A stretch of 64,000 bases of DNA from Deltaproteobacteria bacterium (GCA_020632995.1 JACKEN010000008.1:114064-178063), one strand, 5' to 3'; counted from the first letter of the stretch, positions 10,923 through 64,000 are shown. Notes: generated by a model not told the origin, from the sequence alone. Numbers and translations: made by a program.

Positions 10923-11360
10923 CTACTCGAACAGCGCGTCGTAGCGGGCCTGCATCTGCTCCGGCGTCAGCTTCTCGAGCTCGTGGCCGACGTTCCACTC
11001 GTGACCCCACGGGTCCCGGAAGGTGCCGGAGCGCTCCCCGTAGAAGTGATCCTGGGCCGGCCGGAGCAGGGTCGCGCCCGCCGCCACCGCGGCGTCGATC
11101 AGGGCGTCGGCGTCGTCGACGTGCAGGTGGATCGCGAAGGTGGTGCCGCCGAGGGTCTCGGGGCCCGCGATGTTCATCTCGGGGTACTCATCCGAGAACA
11201 TGAGGGTGGTGCCGCCCATGCGGAGCTCGATGTGCCCGACGCGTCCGCTCGGCTCGACCAGGCGGAAGAGCTCCTCTGCTCCGAAGATGCGCTTGTACCA
11301 CTCGACCGCCTCGCCGGTGTTCCGGAGGCGCAGGTAGGGGAAGACTTCGTGGATGGCCAT
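10923..11360 (-). CDS. VOC/glyoxalase (PhnB-like) protein
   Basis: PYLRLR, AVEWYKRIFGA, HIELRMGG, FYGERSGTFRDPWGHEW. Confidence 0.9.
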   Translation of the reverse strand: MAIHEVFPYLRLRNTGEAVEWYKRIFGAEELFRLVEPSGRVGHIELRMGGTTLMFSDEYPEMNIAGPETLGGTTFAIHLHVDDADALIDAAVAAGATLLRPAQDHFYGERSGTFRDPWGHEWNVGHELEKLTPEQMQARYDALFE

Positions 11361-11399
11361 GGCGTCATCATGCCTTGGGGGGCTCAGCGCCGTCTTGAA

Positions 11400-11490
11400 G
11401 GAATCTGACGGAGCCCCCTTCGGGGCCTCCTATAGCCCTCGCTGCGAATCGGCCCGGCTGGCCGGGCCGCTCTCGCTCACGGAATCTGAC
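11400..11490. repeat. Short palindromic element bounded by a 10-bp direct repeat GGAATCTGAC
   Basis: GGAATCTGAC at 11400-11409 and 11481-11490; perfect inverted repeat CGGCCCGGC-TG-GCCGGGCCG at 11450-11469; CCCC-TTC-GGGG hairpin at 11415-11425. Confidence 0.7.
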
Positions 11491-11491
11491 C

Positions 11492-12295
11492 TCAGAGCTC
11501 GAAGACAGGGACGTGGTGGGGCGAGCGGGGGGCGGCCCGGCGGTACGCCCCGGGGCTGAGGCCGGTGAGCGCCCGGAGCTCGCGGGTCAGGTGGGCCTGA
11601 TCTGCGTAGCCGGCGTGCGCCGCGATGTCGACCAAGGTCTGCCCGGGGTCGCGGGCGAACCGCAAGGCAGATTGCATGCGCTGCACCCGGGCCCAGACCT
11701 TGGGGGGGGCGCCCACCTGGGCCTGGAAGAGCTGGCCGAAGTGCCGGTGGCTGAAGCCGCTGGCCGCCACGACCTCGGCCACCGAGGCGCCGCGCCGCAG
11801 GGCAGCCACGCCGTGGGCCACCGCGGGGTGGAGGCGCCGCTCGGGCTCGAGGCGCGACAGGAGGAGCGCCTCGAACACCCGGAGCCGGGCCTCGGGCTCG
11901 GGGGCTTCGCAGAGGCGCTGGTGGGCCTCCTCCGCGAAGGCGCCCCAGAGATCTCCGACCGGGGTGTGGGCATCGGCGAGGGCGGCCGCGGTGAGCCCGA
12001 AGAGGGCCGCGGCCGCGCCCGGCCGGAGCTGCGCGCCCACCGACGGGCCGGCAGGGTCGAGGGCACGAATGTAAGCTGTCTTGCGGACGCCGCCCACCAC
12101 CGCCCGGGCCACCGGCTCGAAGCCCGCGCCCGGTCGCCACAGGCGCAGCGGCGGGCCCCCCAGCCGGAACACCAGGTGCATCTCGCCGGTGGGGAGCACC
12201 CGCTCCGCCGGGGCCTCGGGGGCCGCGCCGCCCTCGGCGGTCCAGAGGCGCCGCACCACGTGGGCGAGGCGCGGATGGGGGGCGCGGACGAGCAT
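11492..12295 (-). CDS. AraC-family transcriptional regulator
   Basis: ERVLPTGEMHLVF N-terminal domain; HTH SHRHFGQLF..VGAPPK and GYADQAHLTRELRALTG. ATG at 12295 preferred; sits upstream of the VOC gene on the same strand. Confidence 0.88.
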   Translation of the reverse strand: MLVRAPHPRLAHVVRRLWTAEGGAAPEAPAERVLPTGEMHLVFRLGGPPLRLWRPGAGFEPVARAVVGGVRKTAYIRALDPAGPSVGAQLRPGAAAALFGLTAAALADAHTPVGDLWGAFAEEAHQRLCEAPEPEARLRVFEALLLSRLEPERRLHPAVAHGVAALRRGASVAEVVAASGFSHRHFGQLFQAQVGAPPKVWARVQRMQSALRFARDPGQTLVDIAAHAGYADQAHLTRELRALTGLSPGAYRRAAPRSPHHVPVFEL

Positions 12296-12445
12296 GGGCC
12301 CGCCGACTATACGGGTGCGCGCGGGACCTCGCCATGGGACTTCCCGCAGGCAGGCCGCTTGCCTATGGCCTCGGCCCGCGCTCGTGGGCCGCAACCTGGC
12401 AGTTCACGGTTGACCGCGCTCGCGGTGCGCCCTCGAATCCTCGGG

Positions 12446-13363
12446 GTGAGCAACCGCGTCCTGGGCCTTGGCGCCGTCCTCCTCCTCGCTGCCTCGTGCC
12501 GGACCGCGCCCAGCGGTGCGCCTGACGCGGGAGCGCCCCGCCGGATCCCGATCGTGGTGTGGGACGAGGGCTACGTGCCGGCCGAGGTGGGTGCGCAGCC
12601 GGGCGAGCGGGTGCAGCTGGCGGTGACGCGGGAGACCGAGGTGGCCTGCGCGGAGCGGATCCAGGTGGCGGGTCAGGACGTGGCGCTGCCCCTGTACGGC
12701 CTGGCGCTGGTGGACGTCGAGGTCCCGAAGGAAGGTCGGCTTGCATTCCAGTGCCCGACCGGCGCGCTGAAGGGGGCCGTCGTCGTCGCGGATCACGCGC
12801 CCGACCCCGGCCTCGAGCACCCGCTCCTGAGCCGGCCCCCCGCCCTCGACTACGCGGCGTCCCTCGTCGGCACCGAGGCCTCCGAGTGGTCGGTGACGCG
12901 CTGGGACGGGACCGAGCCGCTCACCCTCACCGCGCTGCGGGGCCGGGTGGTGGTGGTGCGCATGTTCATGGACGAGTGCCCCTTCTGCCGCGCAACCCTG
13001 CCTGCGTTGGCGAAGATGCGGGCGGAGCTGGGCGATGTGCCGGTGACCTTCGTGGGGCTCTTCCATTCGAAGCCGCGGGGCACCGAGAGCGACTGGGGCA
13101 CCGCGGTCACCACCGCCCGAAGGTGGGGCGCGGACTTCGCGCTCGGCTACGACACCAACTGGAACACCCTGGCGGGGTGGTACGGGTCGCTCCTCGAGCG
13201 CGCCCCGACGTCCGTGACCTTCGTCATCGATCGGAACGGCAAGTTCGCTTTCGTTCATCCCGGGCCGGTCTTCCACCCCGCCACGCATCCGGATCATGCC
13301 CGCTGCGACGCGGACTACCGGGCGGTGAAGGCCGCGATCGAGCAGGCGCTCGCGGCGCCGTAG
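12446..13363 (+). CDS. Lipoprotein with a cupredoxin-like domain fused to a TlpA/redoxin domain
   Basis: GTG start, lipobox LAASC; GYVPAEV..PGERVQL...CAERI...FQCPTG; then LRGRVVVVRMFMDECPFC (CxxC). Confidence 0.72.
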   Translation: MSNRVLGLGAVLLLAASCRTAPSGAPDAGAPRRIPIVVWDEGYVPAEVGAQPGERVQLAVTRETEVACAERIQVAGQDVALPLYGLALVDVEVPKEGRLAFQCPTGALKGAVVVADHAPDPGLEHPLLSRPPALDYAASLVGTEASEWSVTRWDGTEPLTLTALRGRVVVVRMFMDECPFCRATLPALAKMRAELGDVPVTFVGLFHSKPRGTESDWGTAVTTARRWGADFALGYDTNWNTLAGWYGSLLERAPTSVTFVIDRNGKFAFVHPGPVFHPATHPDHARCDADYRAVKAAIEQALAAP

Positions 13364-56327: not shown

Positions 56328-56490
56328 CCTGCGTACATTTACGCACATAGACCGGCGGCGTACCACTTGGTCTGAAGGCCGCGAACGGCAGTTCGGAAAG
56401 CCACCTTGCTTGACTGGAGCGCCGACGCGGCCTAGTCATCACCCGGTAAGGGCGCCCGTTCGAGGCGTTACGAGGGAGAGGACAGAAGCG

Positions 56491-56928
56491 ATGAAGCGAT
56501 TCTGGTTGGTTGGAGCCCTGTCGTTGGCCGCGTTGGCCTGTGATCCGAACACGAAGCCCACGGACACCGTGCGCAACAACACCTATTCCAGCGCCGATGA
56601 GCCTGGCTGGACCATCTCAGCCATCTCCGTGCGCGTTGCCGTCGATGACGCTGGCGAGCTGCTGGCGCCCGGCGCTGCGGGTGAGTACGGTGCGAACATC
56701 CTGAGCGGTGACCTGGCCCCCAACTCCGCCGCTGCGGGCGAGACGCCCAGCGCGGGCTCGGAGCAGACCATCAGCGCGCTCGACTGCAACAGCTACGACG
56801 TCAAGGTCACGGTCGGCGGCGTCGACTGCGAGCTGACCGACGAGCAGGGCACCGGGCCCCGGTACCTCTGCTTCTCCCAGCACCGCTGGGACATCAGCGC
56901 GGACGAGCTCGGCGACTGCGGCTTCTGA
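56491..56928 (+). CDS. Small hypothetical lipoprotein
   Basis: GGAGAGG SD-like sequence; MKRFWLVGALSLAALAC lipobox. Confidence 0.7.
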   Translation: MKRFWLVGALSLAALACDPNTKPTDTVRNNTYSSADEPGWTISAISVRVAVDDAGELLAPGAAGEYGANILSGDLAPNSAAAGETPSAGSEQTISALDCNSYDVKVTVGGVDCELTDEQGTGPRYLCFSQHRWDISADELGDCGF

Positions 56929-56940
56929 TGCCGCGTGGGG

Positions 56941-56960
56941 GGTGGGCCTTCGGGCCCACC
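56941..56960. terminator. GC-rich hairpin between convergent genes (likely bidirectional terminator)
   Basis: GGTGGGCC-TTCG-GGCCCACC: perfect 8-bp stem with a cUUCGg loop; no U-tract. Confidence 0.6.
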
Positions 56961-57571
56961 TACCCTTCCCGGGCCAGGCGGTCCCGCGCCCGCACCATCC
57001 GGTGGGCGGCGCCGTAGATCAGCCCCAGCGGGCCCAGGTGGAACACGAACAGGTGCACCGGGTCCGTCGCTCCGCAGCGCATGTGGAGCAGCGCGAGGCC
57101 CACCCCGGTCATCCCCAAGGCCATCACCAGCGCGGGGTTCGGGAAGCGGCGCCACAGGCGCCCGCTCAGGATCCCCAGCACCAGCATGGCCAGGCCCGAG
57201 GTGCCGGTGCCGAACAGGAAACACGGCATCCCGGCCCGGAGCTGATCCTCGGGGCTCGGGCCGCCGGGGACCACGGTCATGAGCAGCGCGGCCACGGTGC
57301 CGAGGGCGACCCCGCCCGCCGCCGCGTACACCCAGCGCTGGCTCACCAGGGGTAGCCCGAGGGTGATCGCCACGCCGACCAGGGTCCCGGTGAGGAGGAG
57401 GGCGAGCGCGAGGCCCCAGACCGCGTCGCGGCCATGGGCGGCGTCCGGTACGGGCTGGAGCCACGTCAGGCCCATCCAGGCGGCCAGGAGCGCGGCGTAG
57501 CCGGCCAGGGCGACGCCTCGGCGTTGCTTCAGGGTCCGGAGATCACTCCGGATTTGGCCGACTGCATCCAT
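56960..57571 (-). CDS. NrsF/DUF1109-like membrane protein (putative anti-sigma factor)
   Basis: About five TM helices; MPCFLFG and LHMRCGATDPVHLFVFH Cys/His motifs. Confidence 0.6.
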   Translation of the reverse strand: MDAVGQIRSDLRTLKQRRGVALAGYAALLAAWMGLTWLQPVPDAAHGRDAVWGLALALLLTGTLVGVAITLGLPLVSQRWVYAAAGGVALGTVAALLMTVVPGGPSPEDQLRAGMPCFLFGTGTSGLAMLVLGILSGRLWRRFPNPALVMALGMTGVGLALLHMRCGATDPVHLFVFHLGPLGLIYGAAHRMVRARDRLAREG

Positions 57572-57699
57572 CGTGGGGTTCAGGCTCTCGCTCCGGGGTA
57601 CGGCGGCGCGCCGCGGGCTGTTACCCTCGCGCCCGACCAAGCCTTCGCGGCGGGGCGCGATCTGCGGTAACCAGAACCGCCCCGACCGGGTAGAACAAC

Positions 57700-58371
57700 G
57701 TGGTGCGCCTCGTGAAGATCCCCGGCCTCACCGCCGCCCTCGCCCTGGTCGTGCTGGCCGCCGGGTGTGGCCAGAACATCGTGGGCGCGCTGCCGCTCGA
57801 GGACGCGGGTGTCCAGCCCGACGCGGGCGAGGGCGTAGACGGGGGCGTGGATCCGAACGCGTACCCGGACGGCCCCTACGGCGCGTTCGTGGGCGACACC
57901 CTCGTCAACATGGCTTTCAATGGCTACGTGAACGACCACCCCTCCGAGGGCGCGGTCGAGAACAGCGGCTACATCGAGGGCTACACGTTCCAGGACGTGC
58001 GCGAGCTCGGGCGCTACCGCTACATGCTCATCAACGTGGCGGCGGAGTGGTGCCAGGGGTGCCGCGTGGAGGCACAGCAGATCCCCGGGCTCTACGAGGC
58101 GTGGGCCAACCGGGGCGGCTACGTCATGAGCGTCATCACCGAGAACTCGTCGTCGCGGCCCGCCAGCAAGCGCAACCTGGACGCCTGGGTGGCCACGTAT
58201 CCTATCAACTACACCATGGTCCACGACCCGGAGTCGCTCATCAGTCGCAACCTGGGTTACGACACGCTGCCCCTGAACGTGATCGTGGACCTGGAGACCA
58301 TGACGATCACCCACCGGGTGTTCGGCGAGGACTTCGCCATCTTCCAGACCTTCGATGGGCTCCTGCCCTGA
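57700..58371 (+). CDS. TlpA/redoxin-family lipoprotein 1
   Basis: Lipobox LAAGC; PDGPYG; INVAAEWCQGC (CxxC); LPLNVIVD. Confidence 0.82.
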   Translation: MVRLVKIPGLTAALALVVLAAGCGQNIVGALPLEDAGVQPDAGEGVDGGVDPNAYPDGPYGAFVGDTLVNMAFNGYVNDHPSEGAVENSGYIEGYTFQDVRELGRYRYMLINVAAEWCQGCRVEAQQIPGLYEAWANRGGYVMSVITENSSSRPASKRNLDAWVATYPINYTMVHDPESLISRNLGYDTLPLNVIVDLETMTITHRVFGEDFAIFQTFDGLLP

Positions 58372-58390
58372 GGAACCGAGACCAACCCCC

Positions 58391-58957
58391 ATGCGAGCGC
58401 ACCTCACTTCCCTCTTCATCGCGGCCCTCGTCGGCTGCGCCAGCACCCAGCCCGCTCCCGCGGGCGACGGGGACGCGGCCAAGGCGCCGGTGACCGACGC
58501 GGCGAAGGCGGCCGGCAAGGCCGCCGCGGCCAAGATCCCCGACTTCACGCTGGAGACGGTGGACGGTGAGCGCTTCACCCTCTCCGAGCACGTGGGCCAG
58601 GAGGTCATCGTGATGAGCTTCTGGGCCACCTGGTGCCAGCCCTGCCTCGCCGAGCTGCCGCACCTGGACGCGCTCTACCAGCAGGAGAAGGACAACGGCC
58701 TCCTCGTGGTGGCGGTGTCCATGGACGAGCCCACCAGCCAGGCCGAGGTGGCCCCCACCGTGGCGCGGCTCGGGCTCACCATGCCGGTGGTGCTCGACAC
58801 CGAGCAGCGGGCGGTGGCGCTGTACAACCGCTCCCGGAACGCCCCGATGACCGTGGTCATCGACAAGGGCGGCCAGGTGGTGCGGGCCAGCGCGGGCTAC
58901 AACCCCGGTGACGAAGAGCACCTGGCGGAGGAGGTCCGAGGCCTCCTCGCCCAGTAG
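58391..58957 (+). CDS. TlpA/redoxin-family lipoprotein 2
   Basis: Lipobox ALVGC; PDFTLETVDG; SFWATWCQPCLAELP; atypical AP in place of the usual cis-Pro xP loop context. Confidence 0.9.
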   Translation: MRAHLTSLFIAALVGCASTQPAPAGDGDAAKAPVTDAAKAAGKAAAAKIPDFTLETVDGERFTLSEHVGQEVIVMSFWATWCQPCLAELPHLDALYQQEKDNGLLVVAVSMDEPTSQAEVAPTVARLGLTMPVVLDTEQRAVALYNRSRNAPMTVVIDKGGQVVRASAGYNPGDEEHLAEEVRGLLAQ

Positions 58958-58973
58958 CCCGGGCCACCGCGTC

Positions 58974-60929
58974 ATGAGCAAGCTGACTTGCGTGCGCCTC
59001 GCGGTGGCGGGGGTCGCGGTCTGCCTTTGCGCCCCTGCGCTCGCGCAGGTGGGCACGAGCAGCACCGCGCCGACCCAGAACCTGGCGGACCCGGTGGGGA
59101 TCCCGGTGGCGGAGCCCTGGTACAAGAAGCTGCGGTACGAGCTCCTCGTGCTGTCCACCGCGCGCTGGCAGCAGGACAACGGCGACCTCACCGAGGCGGG
59201 CCACAGCAAGTGGAACCCGTCGGGCGAGAACTTCGGCGACCTCGTCACCACCATCGGTGGCTCGGTGGGCTACGAGCGCTTCCTCTTCGCGGCGCGCTTC
59301 GACACCGCGTTCTACTTCCACAAGCCGGTGGCGGCGGAGAGCGCCAGCCCCCTGATCCAGCTGGATCTGCAGGACCGCTACGTGAACCAGGTGCGGCCGG
59401 AGTACATCGCGTTCAGCTACAACGGCCCGGACGCCTCCGTCGTGCTGGGCGACTACTACATGACCCTGGGCCGCGGGATGGTGCTCTCGGTGCGCAAGGT
59501 GGGTGACGTCGGGGTCGACAACAAGCTCACCGGCGCCCGGGTCACCAACCGCGTGAAGCTCCCGGTGGGCGACCTCAGCCTCACCGAGTTCGCGGGGTGG
59601 TCGAACATCAAGAACTACGAGACGGGCACCGGCTACTACTACCCGGAGCGGCCGAGCGACGCGGCGGATCCCGACAAGCGCTTCTATGATGCCTTGGACT
59701 TCGTCACCGGCGGTCGGGCCGAGTACAGCCTCGGCAAGTACATGAAGGTCGGCGCGCACGCCGCCCAGATCGCCTCGCCCGAGGACGAGCTGGGGGAGCG
59801 GGCCACGGTGCGGGGCTACGGCGCCAACGTGGAGCTGCCGCGGCCGGTGAAGTGGGCCTCGCTCTACGTCGAGGCGGCGCGCCTCACCCGGGACGACAGC
59901 CGCCTCGAGACCCCGAAGAACCGCCAGGTCGGCCAGGCCCTCACCGACGTGAACGAGGAGGGCTGGGGCCTGTACTCCAACGCCAACCTCTACTTCGGGC
60001 CCGCCACCGTCCTCATCGAAGGCAAGTACTACGACAACATGTTCAACGTGTTCCCGCGGGGCATCCGGCAGCCGCGGCGCCAGGTGCTGAACCGCCTGGT
60101 CGAGCCCCCGACCGCGGAGCGCCCGCTGACCCTGCTGCTCGCGAACAACACCGTGTACGGCGGCCGGATGCGGGTGGACTATCGGGTGGCGCCGGGGTGG
60201 GTGCCCTACCTCGCGGGTGGCCTGTACCGCGACAACTCGTTCGGGCGGCAGTCCGACGGCACCGCGATCGACACCGTGCCGCCCACCAACATCAGCGCGA
60301 TCTACGGCGGGGCGCGGGTGACGCAGAAGTGGGCCGAGATCAGCGTCGAGGGCGGGTACCGCACTCAACGCAACCACTACTCCGCGGAGCGCAAGCAGGC
60401 CTCCGATCCCGACGAGGCCCAGCGGGCCAAGGATCTCGACGGCTCCACCTTCCGCGACGACATGCACGTGATGCTCGACTACCGGATGCCGGTCTGGGGC
60501 CCGCTCTCCGTCGAGGTGGCGCTCAACTACCTGCTCGCGCGGCAGGAGAACGCCACCGTGGACTGCCGAGACGTCCCCGCCGTCGCGGAAACCGACGAGG
60601 AGGAGCGGGAGGTCGACGCCTGCAATACGCGGGGGGCCGACCAGGTGTTCGTCTCGCTCCCCGACCAGTGGCACGAAGGCCGCCTTGCACTCTCGGTGAT
60701 CTCGTCCCAGGGCTTCTCGATCACCGGGGCCTACGAGTTCTATACGCGCCAGCCCACCGTCTACAAGCAGCACTACTTCTCGATCGGCGGGCAGTGGAAG
60801 TTCATGGACGGCAGCATCGTGCGCGCGTTGTACGGTGGTGAGCGCGCGGGCCTGAAGTGCTCGGGCGGGGTGTGTCGCTTCTTCCCCGGCTTCGAGGGCG
60901 GCCGGATCGAGCTGGAGATGCGCCTGTAG
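58974..60929 (+). CDS. Outer-membrane beta-barrel, DUF6029-like
   Basis: Signal peptide; alternating aromatic strands; GDYYMTLGRGMVLSVR; C-terminal GGERAGLKCSGGVCRFFPGFEG. Confidence 0.62.
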   Translation: MSKLTCVRLAVAGVAVCLCAPALAQVGTSSTAPTQNLADPVGIPVAEPWYKKLRYELLVLSTARWQQDNGDLTEAGHSKWNPSGENFGDLVTTIGGSVGYERFLFAARFDTAFYFHKPVAAESASPLIQLDLQDRYVNQVRPEYIAFSYNGPDASVVLGDYYMTLGRGMVLSVRKVGDVGVDNKLTGARVTNRVKLPVGDLSLTEFAGWSNIKNYETGTGYYYPERPSDAADPDKRFYDALDFVTGGRAEYSLGKYMKVGAHAAQIASPEDELGERATVRGYGANVELPRPVKWASLYVEAARLTRDDSRLETPKNRQVGQALTDVNEEGWGLYSNANLYFGPATVLIEGKYYDNMFNVFPRGIRQPRRQVLNRLVEPPTAERPLTLLLANNTVYGGRMRVDYRVAPGWVPYLAGGLYRDNSFGRQSDGTAIDTVPPTNISAIYGGARVTQKWAEISVEGGYRTQRNHYSAERKQASDPDEAQRAKDLDGSTFRDDMHVMLDYRMPVWGPLSVEVALNYLLARQENATVDCRDVPAVAETDEEEREVDACNTRGADQVFVSLPDQWHEGRLALSVISSQGFSITGAYEFYTRQPTVYKQHYFSIGGQWKFMDGSIVRALYGGERAGLKCSGGVCRFFPGFEGGRIELEMRL

Positions 60930-60954
60930 CGCCACTCTGGTAGAGATCGGGGTC

Positions 60955-63285
60955 ATGCGCGCCCGGGGCCTCCTCGCTCTTCTGTTGGTCACGGGGTGCT
61001 CGGAGCGGGGGCCCGACGGCTACGGGAAGGTGGCGGAGGGCATCTTCGCGCCCCTGGGCGAGGTCCTCCCCAGCGCCACGCCGGAGCAGCGCGCCACCTT
61101 CCAGCGCGGCCTGGAGACCTCCCAGCGCCGCTTCAAGGTCTCCGAGGGCCTCGGGCCCGCCTTCAACGTGACCTTCTGCGGTGCCTGCCACGAGCGGCCG
61201 ACGCCGGGTGGCAGCGCCGGCATGTACCGGACCTTCTCGATCTCGGGCTACCGCTTGGCCGACGGCGCTTTCGTGATGGGCGAGTCGGCTGGGGCGGCGG
61301 GCGGGGTGGTGCGCATCTACCACGCGGCGGGCGGCCAGGCCCGGCCCGCGGTGCCCGAGACCACCACCATCTTCGGCCAGCGGAACCCGATCCCGTTCTT
61401 CGGGGTGGGCCTGCTCGCCGAGCTGAGCAACGAGGAGATCCTCTCCCGCGCCGATCCGGACGACGAGGACGGGGACGGGATCAGCGGGCGACCCAACTGG
61501 GAGCGGGGCTTCGTCGGTCGCTTCGGGCGGAAGTCCCAGACCGCGTCGATCGAGGGCTTCATCCGCGGGCCGCTCTTCAACCACCTGGGCCTGACCACCG
61601 ACCCCCTGAGCGACGCCCAGCGGGCCGCGCTCCCGGTCGACAGCTCCTCGCGCGAGACGAGCCAGGGCGAGTTCGGCCTGTCGCAGGCCGCCTTGCGCAC
61701 CGCCCAGGCCGCGGTGCTCGACGACCAGCTCCTCGACGACGACGCCGCGCCGGACCCCGAGCTGAGCACCGACGACCTCTTCGACCTCGTGAGCTTCTCG
61801 ATGCTCCTCGCGGTGCCGTCGCTCGAGCCGCTCACCCCCGAGGGCGAGGCGGGGCGGCAGGTGTTCGAGGACGCGGGCTGCGGGGGCTGCCACGCCCCCC
61901 GGCTCGAGGGCCCGCGCGGGCCGCTGCCGGTGTACTCGGACCTCTTGCTGCACGACATGGGCGACGCCCTCGCCGACGACATCGATCAGGGCGAGGCGAG
62001 CGGGCGCGAGTTCCGCACCCAGCCCCTGTGGGGGGTGAGCGCGGTGGGGCCGTATCTGCACGACGGGCGGGCCGAGACCATGCTGCAAGCCATCCTGCTC
62101 CACGGGGGCGAGGCCCAGGCGGCGCGGGACCGGGTGGCGGCGCGCCCCGGGGCCGAGCAGGCCCAGCTGGTGGCGTTCCTGATGTCCCTGGGGGGCCGGG
62201 ACCAGTACAGCCCGGGCCTGGTGCCGATGGACGAGCCGGCGCCGGACTTCGGGGCCTGGGGCGGGCCGGTGCGGGCGATGTCGGGGCGAGAGGCCGCGCG
62301 CTTCGAGGCGGGGCGCCGGCTCTTCGATCGGGAGCGCGGACTCGCGAGCGGCCTGGGGGCACCGCGCTTCAACGGGGACTCGTGCCGGGCCTGCCACTTC
62401 GAGCCGGTGCTCGGCGGCGCGGGGCCGCTGGGGGTCAACGTGATGCGCCACGGCATCGCGAACGCCGAGGGGCGCTTCGTCCCCCCCGCGGTGGGGACCA
62501 TCCTGCACCGTGAGACCGCGCTCATCGGGCACGCCCCGGTGGCCCAGGCGGCGGCCAACGTGTTCGAGCCGCGCCAGACCCCGCACCTGTTCGGGCTGGG
62601 CCTCATCGACGCCCTGCCCGAGGCGGTGATCATGGCCAACGCAGATCCCGACGACGCGGTGAGCGCGGATGGGATCACCGGCCGCGTCTCGTACACCGAC
62701 GACGGGCGGGTGGGGCGCTTCGGCTGGAAGGCCCAGGTGCCGTCCCTCGCCGAGTTCGTGCGCGACGCGTTCGGGGCGGAGCTCGGGATGACGGTGGCCT
62801 ACCAACCTGGGCTCACCTTCGGGCGCCTGCACGACGAGGATGCGGTGGCCGACCCCGAGGTCCCGGTGGAGGAGGCGGAGCTGATGCGTGACTTCCTCGC
62901 AGCCCTCGGGCCCCCGCCGCGGGCGGAGGGAGATGTGCAGGCTGGCCTGCAGGTCTTCGAGGCCACCGGGTGCGCCGCGTGCCACATCCCGGCACTGGAA
63001 GGCCCGGGCGGCGCGGTGCCGCTGTTCTCGGACCTGCTCCTGCACGAGATCCTGCCGACCGACGCGTGGGGCGTGGAGGACACCTCGGCCAACATGCGCG
63101 AGTTCCGGACCGCGCCGCTGTGGGGCCTGAGGGAGACCGCGCCCTACTGGCACACCGGCGAGGCCGAGACGGTGGAGGCCGCCATCCTGCTCCACGAGGG
63201 CGAGGGTCGGGCGGCGCAGGACGCCTTTCGGAGCCTGAGCACGGTCGAGAAGGAGGCGCTCCTCGCCTTCCTGGGGACGCTGTGA
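60955..63285 (+). CDS. Internally duplicated di-heme oxidoredictase (DHOR-like) lipoprotein with four CxxCH motifs
   Basis: GLGPAFNVTFCGACH, GCGGCH, GLGAPRFNGDSCRACH, GCAACH; GRFG(R/W)K; FRT.PLWG..YLHDGRA twice in variant form. Confidence 0.85.
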   Translation: MRARGLLALLLVTGCSERGPDGYGKVAEGIFAPLGEVLPSATPEQRATFQRGLETSQRRFKVSEGLGPAFNVTFCGACHERPTPGGSAGMYRTFSISGYRLADGAFVMGESAGAAGGVVRIYHAAGGQARPAVPETTTIFGQRNPIPFFGVGLLAELSNEEILSRADPDDEDGDGISGRPNWERGFVGRFGRKSQTASIEGFIRGPLFNHLGLTTDPLSDAQRAALPVDSSSRETSQGEFGLSQAALRTAQAAVLDDQLLDDDAAPDPELSTDDLFDLVSFSMLLAVPSLEPLTPEGEAGRQVFEDAGCGGCHAPRLEGPRGPLPVYSDLLLHDMGDALADDIDQGEASGREFRTQPLWGVSAVGPYLHDGRAETMLQAILLHGGEAQAARDRVAARPGAEQAQLVAFLMSLGGRDQYSPGLVPMDEPAPDFGAWGGPVRAMSGREAARFEAGRRLFDRERGLASGLGAPRFNGDSCRACHFEPVLGGAGPLGVNVMRHGIANAEGRFVPPAVGTILHRETALIGHAPVAQAAANVFEPRQTPHLFGLGLIDALPEAVIMANADPDDAVSADGITGRVSYTDDGRVGRFGWKAQVPSLAEFVRDAFGAELGMTVAYQPGLTFGRLHDEDAVADPEVPVEEAELMRDFLAALGPPPRAEGDVQAGLQVFEATGCAACHIPALEGPGGAVPLFSDLLLHEILPTDAWGVEDTSANMREFRTAPLWGLRETAPYWHTGEAETVEAAILLHEGEGRAAQDAFRSLSTVEKEALLAFLGTL

Positions 63286-64000
63286 TGGCGCGCTGGCAGG
63301 CAGGCTTGCTGTTCTTGGGGCTGCTCGGGGCGGGCTGCCCCGGGCCCGAGCCCGATCCGCCACCGCCAGCGCCGGTGGATCCGGTGCACGACGCCCTGTC
63401 GCGACCGGTGACCCCGACCCTGGACCCGGCCGCCTTCGCCGGCGCCGTGGCCTGCCAGACCTGCCACCCCCAGCACTACGCCGAGTGGCAGACCTCGCGG
63501 CACGCCTACGCGATGCGGGACGAGGTGTTCCGGCGCCTGGTGGCGATCCGGCAGGCCGACTACGCAGGCGCCCAGGACCAGTTCTGCACCCAGTGCCACA
63601 GCGCCATCTGCGCGCGGGGCGGGGCCTGCGTGGACGGCTTCTCCTTCGACGCGCTGCCGCCGGTGGCCCTGGAGGGGGTGACCTGCGAGGCCTGCCACCG
63701 GGTCTCGGGCCTCGAGCGGCGGTACAACAGCGGCCACGTCCTGGATCCGGGCGGGCCCATGCGGGGCACGATCGAGGATCCGGCGACGAGCCCGTTTCAC
63801 GCCACCGAGTACTCGCCGCTGCACGCCACGTCGGAGTTCTGCGCGGGCTGCCACGACGTGATCGAGCTGTCGGGCCTCAACCTCGAGCGCCCCTTCGCGG
63901 AGTGGTCCGAGTCCCCCGCCGCGGGCACCACCGAGACCTGCCAGAGCTGCCACATGCCGACCCGGGAGGGGGTGGCGGCGGAGGGCGGGCCGCCCCGCAC
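63285..64000 (+). CDS. Multiheme c-type cytochrome lipoprotein (c554-like N-terminus), 3' truncated; not in the ORF track
   Basis: Manual translation from ATG 63285: lipobox LGAGC; CQTCH, CTQCH, CEACH, CAGCH, CQSCH; WQTSRHA motif. Confidence 0.9.
   Translation, partial: MARWQAGLLFLGLLGAGCPGPEPDPPPPAPVDPVHDALSRPVTPTLDPAAFAGAVACQTCHPQHYAEWQTSRHAYAMRDEVFRRLVAIRQADYAGAQDQFCTQCHSAICARGGACVDGFSFDALPPVALEGVTCEACHRVSGLERRYNSGHVLDPGGPMRGTIEDPATSPFHATEYSPLHATSEFCAGCHDVIELSGLNLERPFAEWSESPAAGTTETCQSCHMPTREGVAAEGGPPR

Follow-up and report, generated by a model that had tools for sequence, protein, structure and literature searches.

Five exported redox proteins in a single run

The window analysed here is a 64,000 nt stretch of DNA from a Deltaproteobacteria bacterium (GCA_020632995.1, JACKEN010000008.1:114064-178063), which has a G+C content of about 71 % and lies within a 325 kb contig of a 9.35 Mb Myxococcota-type assembly. 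At the end of the window are five plus-strand genes, which we name g1 to g5 (57700-64643 in window numbering) and which encode two redoxins, an outer-membrane barrel and two multihaem lipoproteins. The cluster probably consists of two independently conserved envelope modules set end to end: a thiol-redox trio, g1-g2-g3 (module A), and a haem pair, g4-g5 (module B). The features are:

57700-58371, plus strand: g1, 223 aa, lipoprotein redoxin with lipobox LAAGC and motif WCQGC
58391-58957, plus strand: g2, 188 aa, TlpA/ResA-type lipoprotein with lipobox LVGC and motif WCQPC
58974-60929, plus strand: g3, 651 aa, DUF6029 barrel with a cleavable signal peptide ending ALA/QV
60858-60875, plus strand: C-x4-C codons of g3, C629-S-G-G-V-C634
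60955-63285, plus strand: g4, 776 aa, tandem DHOR protein with lipobox VTGC and four CxxCH motifs
63282-64643 (window part 63282-64000), plus strand: g5, 453 aa, with lipobox GAGC and five CxxCH motifs

A first-pass annotation of this DNA had described five same-strand genes with gaps of 19, 16 and 25 bp and a final overlap, all of them exported and four with lipoboxes, comprising two CxxC redoxins, a barrel ending in C-x4-C, and proteins with four and at least five haem sites. This inventory proved accurate throughout. The genes lie where they had been placed, with the stated gaps and a 4 bp overlap between g4 and g5, and C629/C634 stand seventeen residues before the C-terminus of g3. The lipoboxes of g1, g2, g4 and g5 and the signal peptides, including that of g3, were assigned by eye rather than with a predictor. 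The last 643 bp of g5 lie outside the window, and with the end of the gene taken from the genome sequence (L001) it is completed to 64643 and contains exactly five CxxCH motifs. Minus-strand genes begin after g5, so the run closes there and comprises exactly five genes.

The two redoxins and the barrel

g1 matches the Pfam family AhpC-TSA at 38 bits. Its layout is a disordered linker of about 30 aa followed by a ResA/TlpA-fold domain [AlphaFold2 model, predicted local distance difference test (pLDDT) score of 87], for which Foldseek returned ResA (1st9, 2f9s) and 4nmu at TMt 0.82-0.84. An affiliation with Omp28/HBP35-type proteins was considered and ruled out, because the fold found by Foldseek is that of ResA/TlpA. 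The WCxxC motif is present in 93 of 94 g1 homologues, with W117, C118 and C121 invariant, and g1 is, by its signature YPxGPYG...NxxFxGY...AAxWCxxC, a redoxin subfamily of its own. g2 matches AhpC-TSA (78 bits) and Redoxin (74 bits) and carries the motifs FWATWCQPC...GYNPGDE. Its NCBIfam scores are 96 for the ResA subfamily (cut-off 170), 60 for the TlpA equivalog (cut-off 230) and 36 for DsbE (cut-off 123); g1 scores 22 against a cut-off of 170. Both proteins have the N-terminal hairpin and central insert of the TlpA/ResA/CcmG fold class, g2 by Pfam and g1 by its model and Foldseek matches. Orthology to a characterised member of the class was not found, since both fall under the NCBIfam cut-offs, and on these scores we class the two as TlpA-like and not as TlpA, ResA or CcmG themselves. 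Elsewhere in the genome are seven further TlpA-like matches, spread over five contigs, and a DsbD_TM homologue (C33:25738-26364).

g3, a single-copy gene in its genome, belongs to the Pfam family DUF6029 (PF19494, 54.3 bits against a cut-off of 27), which is also the precomputed annotation of all 35 g3 homologues; the Pfam model derives mainly from shorter proteins and aligns just the last 85 residues of g3. The AlphaFold2 model [pLDDT 81, predicted template modelling (pTM) score 0.78] has 24 long strands, as assigned by DSSP, and no plug domain, and g3 is accordingly modelled as an outer-membrane β-barrel of about 24 strands. Foldseek matches in the PDB were confined to generic large outer-membrane barrels at TM scores of 0.41 or less (chitoporin, ushers, TonB-dependent receptors, AlgE and OccD), with no specific structural relative of g3 among them. 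The only paper that we found to mention DUF6029 reports a likeness, by HHpred, of Wzi-barrel-like matches to the family and proposes a polysaccharide role (PMC9603273).

Mature g3 contains four cysteines, at positions 531, 550, 629 and 634. In the model, C629 and C634 sit on a short β-hairpin (626-630 and 633-637 by DSSP) in the final long loop, which precedes the terminal strand. When 23 barrels ranging from Myxococcota to Bacteroidota were aligned, 21 columns proved invariant, and seven of these (C629, G632, C634, R635, P638, F640 and G642) fall within the C-terminal motif; g3 carries the family motif, G-x-x-R-x-G-x-x-C-x4-C-R-x-x-P-x-F-x-G, ahead of its last strand with all invariant residues kept. 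When a DUF6029 profile was searched against 1.84 billion representatives, 2003 clusters were obtained; among the best 145 newly retrieved representatives, which were those examined, the C-x4-C pair lies within the last 45 residues of 136 of the 138 full-length proteins. By this count the C-x4-C hairpin is a near-universal hallmark of DUF6029. Other conserved motifs of g3 are LGRGMxL, EGKxYDN and PPTAER. A second cysteine pair, C531/C550, is found in the closest clade only and bounds residues 531-550 (window 60564-60623), in an acidic loop of about 40 residues.

Conservation of the trio

Contexts of barrel homologues were taken at falling identity, from 80 % to 23 %. A redoxin always lies upstream of the barrel, and the haem genes are absent, at 67 % (L008), 60 % (L002), 41-42 % (L004 and L006), 26 % (L010) and 23 % (L009) identity; on the Bacteroidota contig L011, too, a redoxin precedes the barrel without haem genes. 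A pattern scan with one genome per species added 80 further loci, nearly all from Myxococcota and including Sorangium chromosomes, and these were searched with hidden Markov models (HMMs) built from the window proteins, with a neighbour limit of 3.5 kb from the barrel. Genes of both the g1 and the g2 type occur within this distance at 64 of the 80 loci and at least one of them at 75, and several of the remaining loci are truncated by contig ends. The same HMM search gave no g4 or g5 match at any of the 80 loci.

The commonest order is g1-g2-barrel, with the barrel last and followed by a convergent gene; a second layout combines g1-barrel with a convergent g1-g2 pair, and g1 itself is present in one to three copies per locus. 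Clustering of the neighbouring open reading frames (ORFs) into families, which is noisy because high G+C content gives rise to shadow ORFs, returned the barrel and the redoxins as the only universal members, and no polysaccharide export genes beside the 80 loci. No ccm/ccs genes, and no linkage to cytochrome genes across relatives, were seen in the neighbourhoods of the barrel homologues examined. Of 201 Myxococcota genomes, 49 encode DUF6029, representing 35 of 110 genera; 14 control genomes lack it. Sorangium cellulosum So0157-2 and the So ce strains (L036, L050, L052 and L056) are cultivable bacteria with module A alone, and Myxococcus xanthus has no DUF6029.

Reductase and barrel are also found as one polypeptide. 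In five different 50 %-identity clusters among the 145 representatives, a signal peptide is followed in frame by one or two g2-type TlpA domains, a short linker and the DUF6029 barrel, and none of these fusions has a second, internal signal peptide. The same sequence of one fusion, P0242 (860 aa), was found on three contigs, of which the two shown represent two assemblies, and it is preceded, with a 4 bp overlap, by a separate g1-like lipoprotein that has a Ser/Thr/Asp-rich linker of about 50 residues; g1 stays a separate gene where g2 is fused to the barrel. The N-termini of outer-membrane barrels are periplasmic, and strand 1 pairs with the last strand, the one that bears the loop of the Cys hairpin. 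Because of this periplasmic N-terminus, the fusions would set the g2-type reductase to work where the barrel opens to the periplasm, close to strand 1, and because it is the barrel to which TlpA is fused, the barrel rather than a cytochrome would be its constant partner. The retention of the trio, the near-universal C-x4-C, the kept WCxxC and the fusions together argue for a TlpA-fed thiol-redox unit at the outer membrane. As judged from gene order and sequence, the trio is a deeply conserved unit of this kind, which takes a simpler form in Bacteroidota. No paper describing a trio of two redoxins with DUF6029 was found in the literature searched.

Individual loci of the family carry additional genes. 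A distant DUF6029 operon, L009:617-7025, encodes three g1-type redoxins and one TlpA, and directly after its barrel, with overlapping stop and start codons, come a sulfite-oxidase-type (SorA-like) molybdoenzyme and a di-haem cytochrome c. A di-haem CCP/MauG gene lies near the trio in L002. The 470 aa genes found 3′ of the barrel in L002 and L008 were considered as relatives of g5 and rejected as membrane proteins without CxxCH.

The haem pair

g4 matches PF06537 (DHOR, or DUF1111) at 213 bits, against a cut-off of 22, in two stretches, and its CxxCH motifs at residues 75, 309, 477 and 673 fall two to each DHOR unit. The protein is a tandem duplication with halves that are 35 % identical (E 4e-54), and the C-terminal sub-domains resemble bacterial di-haem peroxidases (1zzh, 2e-7). 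g5 matches PF13435 (Cytochrome_C554) at 42 bits and scores 29.9 bits, against a cut-off of 30, with domain II/IV of MtrC/MtrF (PF22113); in NCBIfam it scores 22 against 209 for OmcA/MtrC and 36 against 250 for ExtKL. Its haem-bearing part resembles pentahaem c552/c554 cytochromes (PDB 5ze8, 3e-7), and its C-terminal domain of about 200 aa has no Pfam match. There are 298 g5 homologues at E ≤1e-5, with identities of 51-100 % among the 120 matches listed.

The pair travels without the barrel. Full-length double-DHOR orthologues occur in about 18 of the 201 sampled Myxococcota genomes, and in the three closest (61-63 % identity) the next gene is g5 and the barrel is missing. In six further g5 contexts, one of them from Phycisphaerae, a double DHOR of 786-823 aa lies directly 5′. 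Adjacent g4-g5 pairs without DUF6029 are found in the genomes G034, G078 and G068 and on the contigs L129, L130, L131, L136 and L137, and in the contexts examined no redoxin stands beside the pairs found elsewhere. A recurrent third partner is a propeller-like lipoprotein of about 340 aa (L129:8413-9429, L122:11203-12276 and L130:1336-4413; 35-55 % identical), and in L131 a metzincin-like gene comes after the set; the window copy has neither propeller nor metzincin. By these associations g4-g5 is the core of a separate haem-lipoprotein module, for which our best guess, predicted from the domains, is a peroxidase-like enzyme or an oxidase that comes with an electron wire of its own.

The genome that contains the window has a second double DHOR (G000 C88:332297-340798), a protein of 787 aa that is 56 % identical to g4 and is encoded beside a propeller-like gene of 281 aa; a Fur-like regulator and a 422 aa di-haem protein are close by, and there is neither g5 nor barrel. 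This locus hints that the double-DHOR family may be under iron or peroxide control. A candidate fusion of DHOR and cytochrome, P0074 (688 aa, PF06537 plus PF13435), was discarded, because it consists of two adjacent genes read through at a frameshift and has a signal peptide in its interior. On a Bacteroidota-like contig, L138:2478-11403, genes for DsbD, a TlpA-like redoxin, an M1 peptidase, a distant g5-like pentahaem cytochrome and a T9SS-tailed FG-GAP protein lie on the same strand, and the spacing of TlpA and cytochrome recurs in L139 and L144.

The junction between the modules

The five-gene layout recurs on the metagenome contig L007, where the proteins are 80-87 % identical to those of the window and g3 and g4 are 24 nt apart. 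Among the contexts examined, the window genome and L007 (barrel 80 % identical) are the only ones in which trio and haem pair are adjacent. g4 of L007 is frameshifted near 11340-11364, giving ORFs at 11011-11364 and 11337-13319, and at about 4x coverage the split may be an assembly error rather than the mark of a pseudogene. Six other genomes encode both a full-length g4 and a DUF6029 protein, and the two are always unlinked, with 2.6 Mb between them in G078 and a separate contig for each in G034, G043, G063, G083 and G098. The co-conservation of the haem genes with the TlpA-barrel trio that the earlier proposal of a single system implied is thus contradicted on three counts, namely their absence from all 80 species-level loci, the six genomes in which they are unlinked and the g4-g5 pairs that lack a barrel.

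Flanking genes

The region upstream of g1 is divergent and holds two features:

56960-57571, minus strand: six-TM membrane protein, 203 aa, whose two conserved cysteines lie in GMPCF and H-x-RCG, about 50 residues from each other
57572-57699, strandless: divergent intergenic region, 128 bp, with CTGTTACC at 57618 and GGTAACC at 57666

The start codon of the six-transmembrane (six-TM) protein was fixed by alignment. Orthologues accompany the trio only at barrel identities of 40-80 % (L002, L004, L006, L007 and L008), and no match was found in Pfam (E up to 10) or NCBIfam (E up to 1). The two cysteines about 50 residues apart had brought an NrsF/DUF1109 anti-sigma factor to mind, a candidate that was dropped for want of any such match. 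The protein may serve as a redox partner in the membrane or as a regulator that senses thiols. Within the intergenic region, CTGTTACC is kept in L007, L008 and L002 and partly in L004, and the region may be an operator or promoter; no sigma-70-like promoter was found in the 128 bp by a scan that was uninformative overall. Further upstream, at 56488-56928 on the plus strand, is a gene for a small Cys-rich predicted lipoprotein of 146 aa with no family match, and L007 has a 152 aa gene at the same position. On the other side, just past the end of the window, a gene for an ARPP-1 domain protein (PF20208; L001:8711-9754, minus strand) is convergent on g5 and is followed in L001 by one for a 456 aa protein without a family match.

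Interpretation of the cluster

Of the combined thiol/haem redox system that the first-pass annotation had put forward, the two redoxins and the Cys-bearing barrel hold up as a conserved unit, and the haem genes, found at none of the 80 loci, drop out of it. Because these genes are not co-conserved with the trio, a five-part machine is not supported, and for the same reason a dedicated maturation and export unit for surface cytochromes, the other possibility raised at the outset, is unlikely. The data fit better a history in which module B came to lie behind module A in the ancestor of a genus-level lineage, with at most shared regulation, for example in the handling of envelope oxidants.

In the model that we propose for module A, g2 would be recharged by a CcdA/DsbD-type transporter of the cell and would dock next to strand 1, the neighbour of the last strand, where the barrel opens to the periplasm. 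There it would maintain a pair of thiols in the reduced state, at the outer membrane or across it, this pair being the cysteine hairpin of the barrel, the active-site cysteines of g1, or both, and g1 would be either retained by the barrel or transferred through it. That g1 varies in copy number suggests a role for it as the terminal or client-facing component. A bolder version makes module A a disulfide relay across the outer membrane, a counterpart of DsbD there, running from CcdA/DsbD to g2, to a lumenal C-x4-C and on to g1 or surface thiols, and in this lineage having the nine-haem pair as an added sink or source. We offer this relay tentatively and think it improbable, and to its haem component taken alone, a co-transcribed nine-haem pair that serves the relay as sink or source, we attach very little weight.

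Several observations weigh against separating the modules or against the proposed mechanism. The haem genes are probably co-transcribed with the trio in the window genome, because the g3-g4 gap is only 25 bp, without a terminator, and the junction is kept in L007; functional coupling in this lineage is possible. No terminator-like or promoter-like site was found between g3 and g4, by a scan that overall performed at chance level. Of about 85 contexts, 3 have redox or haem genes behind the barrel (the window/L007 pair, L009 and L064, the last with a five-haem protein 1.2 kb downstream of the trio), which may slightly exceed chance and is at best a weak enrichment. By the usual topology of barrels, the loop that bears the Cys hairpin in the model would be extracellular or folded into the lumen, and not a periplasmic turn. 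Finally, the mechanism of module A is one that we only infer.

The same observations bear on the alternatives. If all five proteins formed one trans-envelope conduit, with disulfide chemistry on the barrel wired to nine haems, then the tight spacing, the probable co-transcription, the layout kept in L007, the redox or haem genes that now and then come after the trio (L009 and L064), and the sub-threshold matches of g5 to MtrC/MtrF (29.9 against 30 bits) and ExtKL would all find an explanation. Nevertheless, we judge such a conduit very unlikely: co-conservation does not extend beyond one close relative, g4-g5 has conserved partners of its own elsewhere, the barrel is not of the MtrB type, no MtrA-like decahaem is present, and the OmcA/MtrC and ExtKL scores are far under the NCBIfam cut-offs. 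ResA/CcmG-fold redoxins reduce the cysteines of apocytochromes. g1 and g2 might accordingly play this role for the nine CxxCH motifs of g4 and g5, with the barrel exporting the lipoproteins, as the best NCBIfam match of g2 (ResA) and the distant g5-like cytochromes encoded close to DsbD and TlpA in L138, L139 and L144 would allow. It is hard to reconcile this with a trio that occurs in 64 of 80 species without a cytochrome gene nearby, with g4-g5 pairs elsewhere that have no adjacent redoxin, with fusions that make the barrel the constant partner, or with the seven other TlpA-like matches in the genome that could serve cytochrome maturation, and we consider this alternative scarcely credible. 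Nor do we think it likely that the adjacency is a neutral rearrangement, without shared regulation and with an internal promoter for g4-g5. The modules are unlinked everywhere else, and an operon of the module A type normally ends with the barrel; however, the 25 bp between g3 and g4 show no promoter- or terminator-like site, and the junction has been kept at 80 % protein identity in L007.

A serious rival to the thiol-redox reading takes module A for a channel that would let in or out a sulfur or disulfide substrate which the two redoxins reduce in the periplasm; alternatively, module A could be a Wzi-like polysaccharide porin whose redoxins would merely attend to a structural disulfide. The points in favour are the L009 operon, in which genes for a sulfite-oxidase-type enzyme and a cytochrome c come straight after the barrel, the Wzi-barrel likeness of DUF6029 and the polysaccharide role proposed from it (PMC9603273), and the channel-type barrels among the Foldseek matches (chitoporin, AlgE and OccD). 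However, only one operon shows the SorAB link, the barrels matched by Foldseek are generic (TM ≤0.41), and the family clustering placed no polysaccharide export genes beside the 80 loci. A structural disulfide is a further difficulty, as an adjacent cysteine pair needs no isomerase and, if they only assisted folding, two dedicated reductases would be hard to account for. We take a channel or porin to be possible without being probable, and retain the reading of two independent modules, the first of them a thiol-redox unit.

We know of no route in Gram-negative bacteria by which thiol-reducing power reaches or crosses the outer membrane. A reductase-barrel unit that recurs across phyla, with fusions and a near-universal cysteine pair, is a testable candidate for such a route and at minimum a new class of redox-dependent outer-membrane protein; a relay across the outer membrane, if true, would raise its interest to high. 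The haem pair is separate, widespread and equally uncharacterised, and each module can be studied independently in organisms that have only one of them.

Relation to known systems

The clients of the DsbD/CcdA-fed reductases TlpA, ResA and CcmG (DsbE) are periplasmic, and include apocytochromes, Sco/CoxB and Msr. g1 and g2 share with these reductases the fold, the WCxxC motif and membrane-tethered export, and a DsbD_TM homologue is present in the genome, whereas the constant partner here is an outer-membrane barrel with an invariant cysteine pair, to which the reductase is sometimes fused. In the CcdA-Etrx-MsrAB2 system of Streptococcus pneumoniae, thioredoxin-fold lipoproteins that are fed from the cytoplasm, including two paralogous redoxins, repair oxidised extracytoplasmic proteins. 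Module A likewise has two redoxin lipoproteins; the pneumococcal system, however, is that of a Gram-positive bacterium without outer membrane or barrel, and no Msr gene is linked to module A.

The barrel of about 24 strands adjoining multihaem lipoproteins recalls the MtrCAB and Geobacter Pcc/Ext conduits, as does the faint similarity of g5 to MtrC domain II/IV and ExtKL. In contrast to MtrCAB, g3 matches DUF6029 only, the locus has no MtrA-like periplasmic decahaem, and the barrel and cytochrome genes of the window are not co-inherited. DUF1111 proteins have been described in iron-linked operons of the order imelysin-DUF1111-imelysin-DUF1513 (PMC3143127; bioRxiv 10.1101/072470). g4 belongs to the same family, PF06537, and its relatives are often partnered with a β-propeller lipoprotein, as DUF1111 is with DUF1513; g4 differs in being a tandem double DHOR with a pentahaem partner, and neither an imelysin/EfeO gene nor a Fur box was seen at the locus. 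Within DUF6029, itself a Pfam family of unknown function, g3 stands on a long Myxococcota branch, with extra loops and the lineage-specific C531/C550 pair. Undescribed in the literature searched, module A is best classed as a variation on the extracytoplasmic TlpA-type reducing pathways.

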